64,000 bases of DNA from Escherichia phage E26. The position numbers were made by a program, and so were the translations under genes. The stretch is from sequence record MN655998.1. One strand, given 5' to 3'. Positions 3,205 to 49,486 of the stretch are shown here, one piece after another. The stretch's first letter is position 1. The number at the start of each line of letters is the position of its first letter. The notes below the pieces were generated by a model. The model made no database searches, had not been told where the DNA came from, and saw only the letters and a program-made list of their open reading frames with translations.

Positions 3205-5028
3205 TTATGATTGCATCCAAATTTTGCGCTGATCTGCATCTTCACTATAGAGCAAATCGAATAGCTCTTTATAGTTTTCCGGTAACGTGATGATCTCCAT
3301 GACAGGATCGTTGATCACGCGATGATAGTCTGATTCTGTGAGCGATGCTAAACCTTTGATATATCGAATGTTGTAACCTTTGATATTATCTCGGTCGTTC
3401 TCGAAATCTTCTAGGTCATAATACCATCGAACATCATCACCTTTCTTTGGTTCAGCAATGATAATAGGTGTTTTGATAAACCGGATTCGTCCATCTTCGA
3501 ACAATTCAGGCCAACGTGCAAAGAAAGAGATCAGACTAGGTTTAATAGACCCGATCCCGTCGGTATCCGCGTCTGTCATAATCGCAATATTTTTGTATTG
3601 CATAACTTCCAATGCATCAACACCAAATTGCAAACCAGTGATCGCCATGATGTTAAAAATTTCGGCGTTCTTAACGATCTTTGCCTCCGGTTGTTCCCAC
3701 GTTGTAAGAGTTTTGCCTCGCAACGGGAAACCGCCATGTAAATCTTGATCACGTACAGAGATCAGATAGTTGATCGCGGAATCACCTTCCGTCAAAAACA
3801 GGGTAGTTTCTGCGTCAGTTCCAATAAGGTTAGCTTTAACATGTTTTGCTACCTTAGCCCGTTTCGCTGCCTTTGCTGCCTTAGTCGCTGCCGCTTTATC
3901 GGCTGCCTCTTTGCGTGCCAGGACTACAGCAATAATAGGCATGATAATGTTTTCTTTCTTCGCAATGACTTTAGCCAGCTTTTTAAAATCAAGATCAATA
4001 TGACGCTTGATATCACCAGTCGGGTTAGTCAAGCGTTCTTTTGTCTGTGAATCAAAACGAAGGTTAGGCAATTCACGAACAATAAGAATACAGGTCAATC
4101 CAGACTTAACCGCAGCTTTAGTAACATCAACCTTATATTCTTTCTTGATTCGTTTTACAATCTCTTCACAAAGATCATCTGTCACGTAGTCTACGTGTGT
4201 TCCCCCGTTTTTGGTAAACAGACCATTAGCAAAGGATACTGATTTAAAACCTTCTCCCTCGACCGCAGGAACTAGGGCAAGTGAGAAGTTTTTATCCTCG
4301 ATGACAAACGGATCATCATTGTATAGTTTAGCATAATCCTTAAACTTGCTGGTTATCTTTTTGCCATTAAACTTAAACGTGATCTTAGGAAAGATTACAC
4401 TTAAGGAATACATACGGTCACAAATTACATCTGAAATTTCTTGTGACATGATCATGCCTTCAAAATGATCGAAATCAGGGCAGAATGTAACCTTAGTCCC
4501 TTTCAGCTTTGATGGTTTAGATGACCAACTAATATTTTCAGCGCCATTGGTGCATTGTACGGTCAATTCATTCTCACCATCGCATGTCACACCAGTAAAC
4601 CACGATGAGAAAAATGATGTGAGCGCGCTTCCTATCCCATTCATCCCCATAGTGACACGATTTGTATCATCAAAGTTAGATCCTGCTTTAGCTCGTGTCC
4701 ATGCAGCCACTGGTTGGGGAATCTGTTTCCCTTCTGGTGTAGTGACTATATGTTGTGGAATGCCGCGACCGTTATCTGTTACCGACACAATGTTATCTTT
4801 GATATCTACGCTAATAACATTAGCGTATTCAAAATTAGTGCGGATCGCTTCGTCTACAGAGTTGTCGATAATCTCATCAATAATTTTAACTAGACCGGGA
4901 ACATATGATACTTTGGTCCATTTTCCAAAAAGGAAACGATTATGTGATTCATAAGTCGTTGACCCTATGTACATCGAAGGTCTTTTAAGACAGTGAGCGC
5001 GATCATCTAACAGCAAAAATTCAGACAT
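3205..5028 (-). CDS. 39: DNA topoisomerase II large subunit, GyrB-like ATPase + Toprim (gp39 and gp60 fused)
   Basis: 607 aa; PSMYIGST, DNGRGIP, MTDADTDG motifs; length matches fused 39+60 of non-T4 T-evens. Confidence 0.9.
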   Translation of the reverse strand: MSEFLLLDDRAHCLKRPSMYIGSTTYESHNRFLFGKWTKVSYVPGLVKIIDEIIDNSVDEAIRTNFEYANVISVDIKDNIVSVTDNGRGIPQHIVTTPEGKQIPQPVAAWTRAKAGSNFDDTNRVTMGMNGIGSALTSFFSSWFTGVTCDGENELTVQCTNGAENISWSSKPSKLKGTKVTFCPDFDHFEGMIMSQEISDVICDRMYSLSVIFPKITFKFNGKKITSKFKDYAKLYNDDPFVIEDKNFSLALVPAVEGEGFKSVSFANGLFTKNGGTHVDYVTDDLCEEIVKRIKKEYKVDVTKAAVKSGLTCILIVRELPNLRFDSQTKERLTNPTGDIKRHIDLDFKKLAKVIAKKENIIMPIIAVVLARKEAADKAAATKAAKAAKRAKVAKHVKANLIGTDAETTLFLTEGDSAINYLISVRDQDLHGGFPLRGKTLTTWEQPEAKIVKNAEIFNIMAITGLQFGVDALEVMQYKNIAIMTDADTDGIGSIKPSLISFFARWPELFEDGRIRFIKTPIIIAEPKKGDDVRWYYDLEDFENDRDNIKGYNIRYIKGLASLTESDYHRVINDPVMEIITLPENYKELFDLLYSEDADQRKIWMQS

Positions 5029-5034
5029 ATTATA

Positions 5035-5778
5035 TCATTCTCCGTCAGTTCGTTTCAGGTATTCCAACGCTGCATATAGTCTTTGCGGATCGTCTTTGAA
5101 CATTCCTAATCCGGCGTTACATTTTCCACAAAGAACACCTCTTATCTTACCAGTCTTATGATTATGGTCAAGATGTTTCCACTTTTGGCGTTTTCTCTCG
5201 CCGCATCGTTCATTTATGAATTTTACACCGCATATCTCGCAATTGTCAACTCTGTCTAAAATTTCTAGCGCTTCTCGTTTTGTTATTTTTATACCATCTT
5301 CGGCGTGGTGATATGGTCTATCTAGTTCTCGTTCTCGTTTCTCAAACAATCGACACTCATCAGAACAATACTTTTGAGATGCGTTTATTGCAACAAATGG
5401 TTTACCGCATTTAGCGCATTCTCGTTCAATCTTTATGTTTTGTGTCTGATCCAACGATGCGCAACGAGAACAGCAAAATTTATGATAGCCTCTAGAGTAT
5501 GTATGATAATTTACAGGATTTGGGCATCTTGCACATTTAACTATTCCTGTTATTCCGTGGCGCAATCTATAAACAGCCTCGTTATATGGTTGTTGATTTC
5601 TGAGACCTCCATTACAGAACTTAAACTCATTCCTTATAATCTGAAATTCCGCAGGATACAATTTTTCCATTTCTGGAATTTTATTTTCTTTAAAAAGATT
5701 TGAGTTTAGTCTATTTCCGCTTTTCGCCTCCAGAACATCAACAATAAACTTTTTGATGTTCACTTTTTCTCTCTCCAA
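5035..5778 (-). CDS. HNH (endonuclease VII-type) homing endonuclease-like protein with N-terminal Cys clusters
   Basis: C-terminal HLDHNHKTGKIRGVLCGKCN motif; several CxxC pairs; track start is TTG, true start may be GTG at 5763. Confidence 0.65.
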   Translation of the reverse strand: MEREKVNIKKFIVDVLEAKSGNRLNSNLFKENKIPEMEKLYPAEFQIIRNEFKFCNGGLRNQQPYNEAVYRLRHGITGIVKCARCPNPVNYHTYSRGYHKFCCSRCASLDQTQNIKIERECAKCGKPFVAINASQKYCSDECRLFEKRERELDRPYHHAEDGIKITKREALEILDRVDNCEICGVKFINERCGERKRQKWKHLDHNHKTGKIRGVLCGKCNAGLGMFKDDPQRLYAALEYLKRTDGE

Positions 5779-43269: not shown

Positions 43270-43510
43270 ACTTTACCCACTCAACAAGATCTTTACCTAA
43301 CTCGAAAGCCCATTCTCGGTCTTGCTTTACGTTTTGTAGGTATGGGCTTTCCGACACTCGACGAAGTGATCTTGTCGTAACAAGAATGATCCCAGGAATG
43401 GTCGGATGTTCTTTTCCATATACAATAGGACGCGAGTCACTATCAATACCTTGTAAGAAGGTGTATCCTGAATCACTTAGAATCATATACTTTTTCATTT
43501 CACACATCAC
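43169..43510 (-). CDS. hypothetical protein
   Basis: ORF tiling. Confidence 0.4.
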   Translation of the reverse strand: MMCEMKKYMILSDSGYTFLQGIDSDSRPIVYGKEHPTIPGIILVTTRSLRRVSESPYLQNVKQDREWAFELGKDLVEWVKCEDKNQRNHERKIARNVHRKKLDEIKNRILQSM

Positions 43511-43764
43511 AGATTCCTCAACCAGTTATTAAAGCGAGCAAACCATGATGCTTTTCGTGCTTCTTTTACTTTATGTGCACGAAAACCACTGAAACACCAT
43601 TCATAATCATCACCGAAACATGATTCAACAGGAACACCCGCATTTCGTAGTTCTCTGGTCTTTATCATGAATCCTTGACATAAGGGTCGACCTTCAACAA
43701 TGATAGGAAGTTTAACTTTTTCCATGAAAGTATACCCAGCACGGTCAATAATTTCAATCTTCAT
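43507..43764 (-). CDS. small paralog family B member
   Basis: MKIEIIDRAGYTFMEKVKLPIIVEGR; paralog of 43783..43980. Confidence 0.5.
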   Translation of the reverse strand: MKIEIIDRAGYTFMEKVKLPIIVEGRPLCQGFMIKTRELRNAGVPVESCFGDDYEWCFSGFRAHKVKEARKASWFARFNNWLRNL

Positions 43765-43782
43765 AATATAATCCTCAATTAG

Positions 43783-43980
43783 TTATACCGCCCAGGCTTC
43801 ATTTGCACGAAAACACCATTCATACTCAGGAAAATAACCTTTAATTGGCACGCCAGCTTTTTGTAGTTCCTGCGTTTCTACAAGATAATCAAGCCCATAA
43901 CGACGACCTTCCACGATGATAGGAAGTTTAACGCCATTCATGAAAGAAAATCCACCATCATCAATAATTTCAATTTTCAT
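43783..43980 (-). CDS. small paralog family B member
   Basis: MKIEIIDDGGFSFMNGVKLPIIVEGR. Confidence 0.5.
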   Translation of the reverse strand: MKIEIIDDGGFSFMNGVKLPIIVEGRRYGLDYLVETQELQKAGVPIKGYFPEYEWCFRANEAWAV

Positions 43981-44224
43981 TTACATTGTCTCCATAGATC
44001 TTTCCAGCAATATCAATTTCACCAGCGCGAACATCTAGGATAAGATGCGGTAGGTGTATGCAGTTTTCCCACCCTACGCGCTTCATTTCTTCTACGGTAA
44101 CGTAAGCCCACCCGTTCGCTGTAATAAAGTCTACTTCAACCTTGAGAGGAAAGCAAGACTTTTCTATGTCTTCGAATCCGACAATATGTTTTGTTGTTGA
44201 ATATGGAATATATCCGGTGATCAT
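43970..44224 (-). CDS. hypothetical protein
   Basis: ORF tiling. Confidence 0.4.
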   Translation of the reverse strand: MITGYIPYSTTKHIVGFEDIEKSCFPLKVEVDFITANGWAYVTVEEMKRVGWENCIHLPHLILDVRAGEIDIAGKIYGDNVNEN

Positions 44225-44655
44225 TTTGTGATCTCCTTATACTCAACACACCATAAGCGGGTAGCCCATGATAAACGCTCATAACGCTGGCAGAAATCGG
44301 ACCATAGATATTGTGTACCGTCTTGCATAGTTGAAATATGCGTTTTCTCTCCTACTTTCACGAAAGAAGTATTCGATTTTGTGATCTCGACAGGAGTATA
44401 TCCGAAAGCTGGTTCCAAGTCAACATCTGAACTAAATGCCAATTTAACAGAATTTGTTTTTCTGACCGCTGTCCGGTTTCCTTCTGGGTATAGCACAGCA
44501 GGTTTAGCGCCTAAGCGGATAAACTCAGTATTTTTAATGAACAGAATATCATGATAACCGTCATATTCCGACACTTCCATAGTAACAGGAAAATCGATAT
44601 GTGCTAAACCTGGTAGATCTCGCATGTCATGAAATGTAGCCATCAACTTTTTCAT
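44221..44655 (-). CDS. paralog family C member
   Basis: C-terminal ITKSNTSFVKVGEKTHISTM...YERLSWA shared with 44666..44911. Confidence 0.5.
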   Translation of the reverse strand: MKKLMATFHDMRDLPGLAHIDFPVTMEVSEYDGYHDILFIKNTEFIRLGAKPAVLYPEGNRTAVRKTNSVKLAFSSDVDLEPAFGYTPVEITKSNTSFVKVGEKTHISTMQDGTQYLWSDFCQRYERLSWATRLWCVEYKEITK

Positions 44656-44665
44656 TTTGTATTCC

Positions 44666-44911
44666 TCACTCTTCTGTAATTACTTCATATTCAATTTTCC
44701 ATACATCAATCGCCCAGCTTAAAAGCTCATACGATTTACAGAAAGATGACCAAATATACTGTTTTCCGTGCATCGTTGTTATGTGTGTACGCTCGCCAAC
44801 CTCAACGAAAGACATATTTGACTTTGTGATAACTATAGGAATGCGACCGAAAGCTGGCGGTATTACTGATTCGTTGGTCTTCATTCTATGTTCCTCACTC
44901 TTCTGTTTCAT
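44666..44911 (-). CDS. paralog family C member
   Basis: ITKSNMSFVEVGERTHITTM...YELLSWA. Confidence 0.5.
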   Translation of the reverse strand: MKQKSEEHRMKTNESVIPPAFGRIPIVITKSNMSFVEVGERTHITTMHGKQYIWSSFCKSYELLSWAIDVWKIEYEVITEE

Positions 44912-45131: not shown

Positions 45132-45393
45132 TACATGCTTTTAATGCATCAGTCGCGGTGTCATAGCGAGTATTATCATAGCACCAGTAACCATCTGTCA
45201 ACTGATAAATTAATCCATCCTTTTTAGCTTCGATGAAAGATAACTCTTTGAAAGTTTCTACTTTCTTTACGGATACTCCACGGTCACGGCGCTCATAGAG
45301 TTTAGCTAAAATGCGTTCAGCTTGTTCCTCTTTATCACCAGACAGATCCCAAATAATGTTGCGGATATGTTTGATTAATTGTTCAGCGGTCAT
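45103..45393 (-). CDS. hypothetical protein
   Basis: ATG follows cassette leader. Confidence 0.45.
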   Translation of the reverse strand: MTAEQLIKHIRNIIWDLSGDKEEQAERILAKLYERRDRGVSVKKVETFKELSFIEAKKDGLIYQLTDGYWCYDNTRYDTATDALKACNDHLRKTTI

Positions 45394-45422
45394 CTTTGAT
45401 TCTCCTTAGTTGGTATGTGTGC

Positions 45423-45450
45423 ATTATAGCACTATGATTTTCATTGTCAA
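45423..45450 (-). promoter_or_regulatory. early promoter cassette (TTGACA-N16-TATAAT)
   Basis: Follows terminator after gp38-like gene. Confidence 0.5.
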
Positions 45451-45460
45451 CACCCAAAAA

Positions 45461-45487
45461 ACAAAAAGGCTATCCCGAAGGATAGCC
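45461..45487 (-). terminator. rho-independent terminator after gp38-like gene
   Basis: GGCTATCC-ttcg-GGATAGCC + U-run. Confidence 0.5.
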
Positions 45488-45494
45488 CATAAAA

Positions 45495-46274
45495 TTACAC
45501 GCGAGCACCGTAGATCGTGCCTACTTTATCCCAGCGAGGGGCATTGCCAGTAACAGCCTTACCAGCCGCACCGCCATTATATTCCGATCCCTGTCCACGG
45601 ATATTACATTTACCACCAGCACCGCCAGCATCACCACCGTTACCGCCATTATATACACCGTTGACAGACCCTTTACCTGGCGCGGAAATAGTACCAGCAG
45701 TAGCACCCCGTTCCATATTAGCAGACCCACCGGCAGCACCAAACGGACGCCCACCACCACCGCCAAAGGTTAATCTCATTTGTGAAAAAGGAGAATAATA
45801 CCCACCGCCGCCACCACCACCGCCACCACAAATAGCGCCGTTATTTGTGATGCGTAAGCGTGTGCCTATACCGTTGTTAATTGCATTACCACCAGCACCA
45901 CCAGCGGAGTTATTGCCACCATTACCACCACGCCCCCAAACATGAACACCGGGGTTAATGATCAATGTTACATATTCGTTTGTTAACGAGCTAGGGAAGT
46001 CAAGACAAGGAACGCCAGTAGATTGGGAAACAATATTACCCGTGATAGTAATTACTACAGGAGTAGACCCTTGTGCTTTCATCCAGTTAATAAGAGTGTC
46101 TTTATTGTAAGAGTTACTAGCACCAATGCTATAATGAATCTCTTTAGAGCGTCCGACCATTGCCGACATATACGCCGGACGACCTAAGCGTACAGCTTGC
46201 ATTGCGGCGCTCATCCACCGTTGACCAGTCTCGGACACCGCAGATGATCCTACCCATCCAGAAGATATTGCCAT
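45495..46274 (-). CDS. glycine-rich gp38-adhesin-like protein (tail-fibre receptor-binding protein homolog)
   Basis: 259 aa; conserved-looking N-domain then poly-Gly motifs (GRGGNGGNNSAGGAGG, GGGGGGGGG, GGGGGRPFGAAGGSA) separated by short variable segments. Confidence 0.55.
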   Translation of the reverse strand: MAISSGWVGSSAVSETGQRWMSAAMQAVRLGRPAYMSAMVGRSKEIHYSIGASNSYNKDTLINWMKAQGSTPVVITITGNIVSQSTGVPCLDFPSSLTNEYVTLIINPGVHVWGRGGNGGNNSAGGAGGNAINNGIGTRLRITNNGAICGGGGGGGGGYYSPFSQMRLTFGGGGGRPFGAAGGSANMERGATAGTISAPGKGSVNGVYNGGNGGDAGGAGGKCNIRGQGSEYNGGAAGKAVTGNAPRWDKVGTIYGARV

Positions 46275-46287
46275 AAAATTTCCTCAC

Positions 46288-46310
46288 AAGAAAAGCCCCA
46301 ATTAAGGGGC
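46288..46310 (-). terminator. terminator-like hairpin just upstream of gp38-like RBS
   Basis: GCCCC-ttaatt-GGGGC + UUUUCUU. Confidence 0.35.
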
Positions 46311-46328
46311 ATTGATTGATAATATTAC

Positions 46329-46550
46329 TTAGATGACCTCGGCTTCACCATCCAGGAAGAAAGACCATGTTTTGTTAGGATAGCGAAGCGCCCAAGATTC
46401 GGCAGTCTTAACACCAGCTTCGAACAATTGACGGCTGGTTACTTTAGCCATACCATCTTCGATGGCAACGTTTTCAATAATCATCGGGTACTTAGCGCCA
46501 CGCATGAAACCGAAACCAGCGGAAGATTTGATAATTTTAACAGTTGCCAT
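46329..46550 (-). CDS. small paralog family B-like member
   Basis: KIIKSSAGFGFMRGAKYPMIIE...QLFEAGV resembles 43507 and 43783 ORFs. Confidence 0.45.
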   Translation of the reverse strand: MATVKIIKSSAGFGFMRGAKYPMIIENVAIEDGMAKVTSRQLFEAGVKTAESWALRYPNKTWSFFLDGEAEVI

Positions 46551-46593: not shown

Positions 46594-46622
46594 ATTATGC
46601 ATTAACACCGGATCGCTGTCAA
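46594..46622 (-). promoter_or_regulatory. early promoter cassette (TTGACA-N17-CATAAT)
   Basis: Conserved leader CATCGAAACGAGA...AGGAGAATCAAA. Confidence 0.5.
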
Positions 46623-47607: not shown

Positions 47608-47806
47608 TCTTCACGGTCTCCATAATTGTTTTGTAAGCCAGTTTAAGATGATCACCGAAAAACTTTGCAGTGTTACCATTCGGATCGCGGAGCATGGTTT
47701 CTACGATCTCATCGGCAGTAACAATTTCTCCTTTCTTTGCTGCATGTTCTACCATATACTTCAAAGTTTCTTCGGAAGCAAGTGCTGCGGCTACTGGATT
47801 AATCAT
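47597..47806 (-). CDS. hypothetical protein
   Basis: ATG follows cassette leader. Confidence 0.45.
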   Translation of the reverse strand: MINPVAAALASEETLKYMVEHAAKKGEIVTADEIVETMLRDPNGNTAKFFGDHLKLAYKTIMETVKNAK

Positions 47807-47835
47807 TTTGATTCTCCTTTGTTGTCGATGTGTGC

Positions 47836-47864
47836 ATTATGCTATACCCTATTCCGGTTGTCAA
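47836..47864 (-). promoter_or_regulatory. early promoter cassette (TTGACA-N17-CATAAT)
   Basis: Conserved leader; follows terminator. Confidence 0.5.
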
Positions 47865-47875
47865 CACCTAAAAAC

Positions 47876-47900
47876 AAAAAAGCCACCCTTTCGGATGGCT
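47876..47900 (-). terminator. rho-independent terminator
   Basis: AGCCATCCGAAAGGGTGGCT + UUUUU. Confidence 0.5.
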
Positions 47901-48133
47901 TTTGATTATATTTTATTCACGTCCATTTGTATAGTAGTGTTTGAATCGACCTTTGCTAAACTAGTTAAACATAGTAACCAATTCACCATCCCTTTCCAAT
48001 GATAACCCTTCCTCGTCTTAGACGGGTCTTCCGATTCGGCAGTAATTGAACACGCGAAAGTATGAGGAAACCAAATAGTTGTGTTAATGCTAGTATTCTT
48101 TTACTTATGGTATGCATCCCACGGTGACTAACA

Positions 48134-48821: not shown

Positions 48822-48854
48822 AAGTCATTCCCCCAGATTGAAAATATTCAGTTA

Positions 48855-48862
48855 TATTTATA
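48855..48862 (-). promoter_or_regulatory. late-promoter-like motif TATAAATA
   Basis: About 35 nt upstream of secreted-protein ORF 48519..48821. Confidence 0.35.
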
Positions 48863-48889
48863 ATCCGGGGCTTTATTTATGATTAACTC

Positions 48890-49486
48890 TTATTTGGTAG
48901 TACCATCAATAAAATGTTTACGACACACAGAAACATATTTATCCTCTGCACCAACTTCTATTTGAGCACCATCGCGAATAACATTACCATCTTTATCTAC
49001 GCGAAGGACCATAGTCGCTTTCTTGCCACAATGACAAATACCCTTCATTTCGACCAGTTTATCAGCAAATGCCATTAATGCCGCAGATCCTTCAAATAGA
49101 TTGCCCTGAAAGTCAGTGCGAAGGCCATAGCACAGTACAGGGATATTAGCATCATCAACAAGCGCACACAAGCCTAAAACATGCTCTTTAGTCATAAATT
49201 GGGCTTCGTCTACAAAAACTGCATCTGGACGCCATCGATCCGGTCTACGCTTACCTAACGATTCACGATAAACCAAATCGAAAAGATCATCCGATTTAGT
49301 GAAGGTGATCGCTGGGGCACTTAGGCCAATTCGGGAAACGACTTCACTTTCTGAATCTCGATTATCAATCGCTGGCTTAAGAATTAATACTCGCATATCA
49401 CGTTCGGTATAGTTATAAGCACTTTGTAACAGAGAAGTTGATTTGCCAGCGTTCATAGATGCATAGTAGAAATATAATTGCGCCAT
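48890..49486 (-). CDS. tk: thymidine kinase
   Basis: Walker A MNAGKST; CHCGKKA zinc site; matches T4 Tk. Confidence 0.9.
   Translation of the reverse strand: MAQLYFYYASMNAGKSTSLLQSAYNYTERDMRVLILKPAIDNRDSESEVVSRIGLSAPAITFTKSDDLFDLVYRESLGKRRPDRWRPDAVFVDEAQFMTKEHVLGLCALVDDANIPVLCYGLRTDFQGNLFEGSAALMAFADKLVEMKGICHCGKKATMVLRVDKDGNVIRDGAQIEVGAEDKYVSVCRKHFIDGTTK

Follow-up and report, generated by a model that had tools for sequence, protein, structure and literature searches.

Why does a glycine-rich gene with the look of a T-even receptor-binding adhesin lie among the early genes of Escherichia phage E26, away from gene 37 and the late tail-fibre cluster? We consider this question for a stretch of 64,000 nucleotides of the phage genome (sequence record MN655998.1), referred to below as the window. 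A preliminary description, made from the letters and open reading frames of this DNA, had recognized the architecture of the adhesin gp38 in a 259-aa product, and had proposed that it could be a second, displaced adhesin, a decoy or receptor-masking protein, or a non-virion glycine-rich protein.

Identity of the gene product

The gene, designated g38 here, and the two domains of its product are as follows.

45495..46274, minus strand: g38, 259 aa with an ATG start (ORF call; Pfam, PHROG and PDB matches)
Residues 1 to ~45, minus strand: Gp38_N domain, gp37-docking (Pfam)
Residues 45-259, minus strand: GP38 domain, glycine-rich motifs alternating with hypervariable loops (Pfam)

The reading frame is the one initially described, and its product contains all three of the glycine-rich stretches pointed out there, namely GRGGNGGNNSAGGAGG, a run of nine consecutive glycines (G150-G158) and GGGGGRPFGAAGGSA. 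The Pfam family GP38 (PF05268) covers residues 45-259 along its entire profile (positions 1-218 of 218, E = 9.3e-73), and its score of 245.1 bits, against a gathering threshold of 25, excludes a chance resemblance. The N-terminal family Gp38_N (PF21721) matches residues 1-40 (E = 3.9e-18, 65.6 bits, cut-off 25). A match over the full length was obtained with PHROG 2056 (4.9e-102), annotated as 'tail fiber protein; host specificity', and gp38 of Salmonella phage S16 (PDB 6f45, chain D) aligns over residues 1-257 of the product and 1-247 of its own (2.3e-50), with the N-terminal domain and all glycine-rich motifs in register. In the alignment with relatives, invariant glycine runs border the variable loops. 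The Pfam, PHROG 2056 and end-to-end 6f45_D matches identify the product, as judged from its sequence, as a genuine, full-length gp38 adhesin of the T2/T6/S16 type and as more than a look-alike, which bears out the architecture suggested in the preliminary description.

A single-sequence AlphaFold2 model of the product reached a pLDDT of 32.7 and is unusable, so that the fold is taken from sequence homology only; from the alignment to 6f45_D, we infer a polyglycine-II sandwich for the receptor-binding domain. S16 is a T-even-like phage (PMC9569957), and its gp38 is a homolog of E26 gp38 over the full length. The hypervariable loops of the two proteins differ, and presumably the receptor differs too.

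The G+C content of g38 is 49.7%, and that of its C-terminal part 53.3%, compared to 40.3% for the window. Since this excess follows from the density of glycine codons, it provides no evidence for a foreign origin. A proline-rich ORF of 93 aa at 45517-45798 on the plus strand, antisense to g38, was rejected as a gene; it mirrors the glycine codons, each GGN appearing as NCC on the opposite strand.

Genomic position, copy number and function

Judged from the context of g38, the window represents a Krischvirus genome of the RB49/GEC-3S-like kind. The 4 kb surrounding the gene show 94-98% identity to vB_EcoM_011D4 (011D4 below), PHB13, Makalu 001-003, ECD7, GEC-3S, JSE and RB49, and at least 43 phage records cover at least 80% of this 4-kb context. 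In GEC-3S, Makalu_003 and Phi1, g38 is flanked by the same ORFans as in the window. The distance from rIIA (1-2109) to g38, which is on the early strand and not directly downstream of gene 37, is about 45 kb, and tk occupies 48890-49486 (Pfam TK, 1e-51). The curated record of Phi1, which is collinear, gives the gene order as gp49, nrdC, dam, ORFans, g38, ORFans, rI.-1, rI and tk. The landmarks named at the outset (rIIA some 45 kb away, the nrdC region and tk) were thus correct by the window's ORFs and the Phi1 order, and the layouts of Phi1 and 011D4 confirm an early-strand gene away from gene 37.

This displacement of g38 into the early genes is typical of the whole genus and has already been published. 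Trojet et al. 2011 (PMC3157838) state it explicitly and cite Desplats 2002, which we quote for the displacement as cited there. The GenBank record of Phi1 already names the gene '38, gp38 distal long tail fiber adhesin'. Golomidova et al. 2022 (PMC9569957) isolated spontaneous host-range mutants of RB49 in which the sole changes were the gp38 substitution E230K, alone or together with Y231S, and reported that RB49-like gp38 recognizes O-antigens and OmpA. In addition, a receptor-screen preprint of 2026 presents an AlphaFold3 model of the interaction between OmpA and the receptor-binding protein of RB49. The identity and odd position of g38 are therefore established for the genus by the studies of 2011 and 2022 and the 2026 preprint, and the observation that raised our question is real, ordinary and already known. 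We envisage that in a Krischvirus ancestor g38 moved from beside gene 37 to the hyperplastic ORFan region that extends from nrdC/dam to rI/tk.

What, then, occupies the position after gene 37? In Phi1 and in 011D4, the closest relative, the gene order of the late tail-fibre cluster is g34, g35, g36, g37, an ORF of 79 aa and holin t.

L002:19628-19867 (Phi1): 79-aa ORF in the slot after gene 37
L006:10038-10277 (011D4): 79-aa ORF in the slot after gene 37

The small ORF is conserved between the two phages and belongs to phrog_402 (function unknown), with no Pfam match in either Phi1 or 011D4. It was considered as a remnant of g38 and rejected, given that it shows no alignment whatever to gp38; perhaps it encodes a fibre accessory.

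If the gene encoded a second or extra adhesin, or an early-made decoy or receptor-masking protein, a normal g38 should be found beside gene 37 in addition. The early strand, the surrounding ORFans, the sigma-70-type promoters upstream and the lack of a nearby late promoter would suit such a role. However, a tblastn search with the protein returned exactly one g38 match per record for every Krischvirus among the matches listed, and in Phi1 and 011D4 no other gp38 adjoins gene 37, the next genes being the unrelated 79-aa ORF and the holin. Moreover, the gp37-docking N-terminal domain of the E26 product is intact and conserved, and in RB49 this very gene is the site of the host-range mutations (PMC9569957). 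The same evidence from copy number, the slot after gene 37 and RB49 host range speaks against a non-virion glycine-rich protein, so that none of the three roles first proposed for the product is upheld; that of a second adhesin or decoy strikes us as improbable in the extreme.

Scarcely better placed, and still highly improbable, is the reading that g38 encodes a gp38 of the T4 type, that is, a non-structural assembly chaperone and not a virion adhesin. Its product is named 'distal long tail fiber assembly catalyst' in GEC-3S and JSE, its first ~110 residues are homologous to the short T4-like gp38s, and it is matched by phrog_1121 (3e-24) and by RB32 gp38 (49% identity over residues 6-113). 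Against this, phrog_1121, a profile of 181 positions, matches only residues 1-85, and the E26 product differs from the T4 type (~180 aa, no glycine-rich receptor-binding domain) in its 259 aa and complete GP38 domain, which aligns with the S16 adhesin structure along its whole length; 'assembly catalyst' is a T4 gene name carried over. Substitutions in gp38 alter the host range of RB49 (PMC9569957), and the gp37 that we examined, that of 011D4, has its own intramolecular chaperone (Peptidase_S74 at residues 864-923 of 972, E = 1.5e-11). This partner was seen in relatives only, as gene 37 of E26 falls outside the window. It is on gp37 proteins with an S74 chaperone that a separate gp38 is mounted as the tip (PMC9569957). 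At the sequence level, the tip of 011D4 gp37 gave no match to the S16 gp37 chains of 6f45, even at E = 10.

Taking together the single g38 per Krischvirus listed, the published displacement and the RB49 mutations, we are strongly persuaded that g38 encodes the single, functional, receptor-recognizing adhesin at the tips of the long tail fibres of this RB49-like Krischvirus, and hence its sole working long-tail-fibre adhesin. We propose the following model, based on homology to S16 and T2. A C-terminal S74-type chaperone domain of its own would assist the gp37 trimer in folding and then be cleaved off, and one gp38 monomer would dock on the exposed gp37 tip via the conserved N-terminal domain (approximately residues 1-45). 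In the C-terminal domain, the glycine-rich motifs would form a polyglycine-II scaffold that presents the hypervariable loops to the host receptor, which in RB49 is OmpA or certain O-antigens.

The assignment tells which gene determines the host range in an RB49-like phage, a member of a genus used in phage-therapy cocktails. The displacement of g38 dates in the literature from 2002 and 2011, and the gene's role has genetic confirmation from RB49. For annotators, the practical consequence is that g38 of RB49-like phages is not to be sought beside gene 37. Public names for the gene are inconsistent and include 'assembly catalyst', 'tail assembly' and 'hypothetical protein'. The GEC-3S record HE978309 (g38 at L001 4261-5040) also contains a garbled minus_10_signal feature of about 1 kb (4363-5358).

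The receptor-binding allele

How does the E26 gene compare to other members of the family? In RB49, Phi1, JSE and GEC-3S, this Krischvirus gene occupies the displaced locus seen in E26 and is flanked by the same ORFans and signals. The amino acid identity of gp38 to the E26 protein amounts to 99.6% for GEC-3S, 98.1% for 011D4, 83.3% for RB49 and 81.4% for Phi1. RB49 and Phi1 differ from E26 only in the allele of the receptor-binding loops, with E26 carrying the GEC-3S-class allele: where E26 has YYSPFSQMRLTF, the RB49/Phi1 class has NRGILV, and a 4-residue indel follows GKGSV. The difference to Phi1 is concentrated in one part of the gene.

45495..45944, minus strand: hypervariable receptor-binding part of g38 (aa 111-259), marked by a drop in identity to Phi1

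At the DNA level, the region coding for aa 111-259 is 70.6% identical to Phi1, compared to 97.9% for the N-terminal part of g38 and 90-100%, mostly about 98%, for the remaining segments of the block in which the gene lies (see below). The same allele was found in 14 Krischvirus records of the phage database, at 96.9% identity or above. Next-closest are about 30 Tequatrovirus genomes at 86-89% amino acid identity, followed by other Krischviruses at 81-84%. Tequatrovirus gp38, as in slur02 and FriedrichMiescher, shares the architecture of the E26 protein, and the identity of 86-89% applies to residues 6-259, the hypervariable loops among them. The loops YYSPFSQMRLTF and GVYNGGNGGDAGG agree with slur02 and differ from Phi1. 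In the gp37-docking part (first ~45 residues), E26 matches Phi1 exactly and departs from slur02, the Tequatrovirus proteins being of a different subtype here. DNA identity to Tequatrovirus g38 is only 77%, and in the case of slur02 this similarity starts and stops at the boundaries of the g38 ORF.

Unlike in E26, g38 of slur02 belongs to the late strand, where it comes right behind gene 37; S16 g38 adjoins gene 37 as well. Despite the different genomic address, receptor-binding segments of the gene are evidently still exchanged with Tequatrovirus g38, as the distribution of loop sequences suggests. Modular shuffling of receptor-binding segments has been described by Trojet et al. 2011 (PMC3157838). 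The mosaic C-terminus would represent the selection pattern of a working adhesin.

Transcription signals and flanking PeSL-type elements

Which promoters could serve an adhesin gene at this location? The signals upstream of g38 are listed in the order of their distance from the gene.

46280..46310, minus strand: g38 leader with a hairpin, then a GAGGA ribosome-binding site
46594..46622, minus strand: nearest upstream sigma-70-like (early-type) promoter, TTGACA-17-CATAAT, 11/12 matches
48855..48862, minus strand: T4-type late promoter TATAAATA between tk and rI, the closest such site upstream of g38 (distance 2.6 kb)

The leader contains the terminator-like hairpin that had been noticed just upstream of the ribosome-binding site: GCCCCTTAATTGGGGC followed by TTTTCTT at 46310-46295, with a 5-bp, all-GC stem that makes it a weak terminator or attenuator. 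Sequestration of the ribosome-binding site, for which T4 genes e and soc are known, was not found in the g38 leader (fold z = -0.02; site unpaired in the centroid structure). The promoter at 46594..46622, for which the GEC-3S record annotates a promoter at the equivalent site, is predicted to drive the 73-aa ORF at 46329-46550, and may possibly also serve g38 by read-through of the weak hairpin.

Late promoters were scanned for with TATAAATA at up to one mismatch, a search wide enough to include WATAAATA, a variant reported from RB49. Between g38 and position 48850, the coding strand holds no T4-type late promoter except a poor TATGAATA inside an ORF. A second late-promoter motif, CATAAATA, is found at 48874-48881 on the minus strand, beside TATAAATA in the tk-rI intergenic region. 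The motifs of this region correspond to RB49 Pl:48756, the only late promoter predicted in that part of RB49 (Nolan 2006 supplement). Two terminator-like hairpins intervene between the late promoter at 48862-48855 and g38. Considering these signals, we infer that g38 is most likely transcribed from the sigma-70-type promoters at 46622 and 47864, with read-through of the weak hairpin at 46310; the late promoter at 48862, upstream of rI, might contribute additionally or instead, past the two hairpins. The transcript would end at the strong terminator at 45488-45467. A literature search found neither a transcriptome nor a virion proteome of a Krischvirus.

That terminator and the promoter at 47864 are parts of two composite elements.

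45423..45488, minus strand: downstream PeSL-type element, terminator plus promoter
47836..47903, minus strand: upstream PeSL-type element, a homolog of the first

The terminator that the preliminary description had placed after the gene (45488-45467; 9-bp stem and T-run) is situated directly 3' of the g38 stop codon. It is followed by a promoter at 45450-45423 (TTGACA-16-TATAAT with an upstream TG) that matches the sigma-70 consensus at 12 of 12 positions and is predicted to drive the ORF next after g38. The upstream element consists of a terminator at 47903-47878 (11-bp stem) and a promoter at 47864-47836 (11/12 matches). Window positions 45390-45468 align with the relatives' counterparts of 47803-47882, and the reverse comparison likewise, at approximately 76-79% identity; the two copies of the window also align directly with each other. 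Together they bound a block of 2.4 kb containing g38, five ORFans and the internal sigma-70-like promoter at 46622-46594.

PeSLs of RB49 and Phi1 were described as promoter-terminator motifs and proposed as mediators of cassette shuffling (Arbiol 2010, PMC2839356). The elements at 45488-45423 and 47903-47836 fit this definition, being intergenic combinations of a sigma-70 promoter and a stable stem-loop in a hyperplastic region, and they share with the published cassettes the stop codon, stem-loop, T/AT-rich stretch, sigma-70 promoter, Shine-Dalgarno sequence and ATG. The published mini-circle experiments concerned ORFans, whereas the E26 block holds g38, and the main text of that study contains no mention of 'g38', 'gp38' or 'gene 38' (PMC2839356).

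We speculate that Krischvirus g38 might constitute a cassette of the early region that combines transcription from sigma-70 promoters of the PeSL type with mobility of the 2.4-kb block, a scenario that we consider rather unlikely on balance. It would require that the promoters at 46622 and 47864, rather than a gp55 late promoter, mainly transcribe g38, and the fibre-tip protein would then be made before the remaining virion. The block would excise as a mini-circle and carry the adhesin between co-infecting phages. Measurements of the timing or mobility of the g38 block were not found in the literature.

The surroundings of g38 contain further small genes with signs of duplication. The 73-aa ORF at 46329-46550, which adjoins g38 directly upstream, is paralogous to two other minus-strand ORFs at 43507-43764 (85 aa) and 43783-43980 (65 aa). 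The three products are 32-34% identical, share the pattern KI.II..G..FM..K.P.I.E...AGV..W.F and belong to phrog_7345. Two other minus-strand ORFs, at 44221-44655 (144 aa) and 44666-44911 (81 aa), are related in that the 81-aa product shares 60% identity with the last 65 residues of the 144-aa product, indicating a partial tandem duplication. Some 200 bp of this region (indel at 44678-44879) are missing in GEC-3S and Phi1 and present in Makalu_003 and 011D4.
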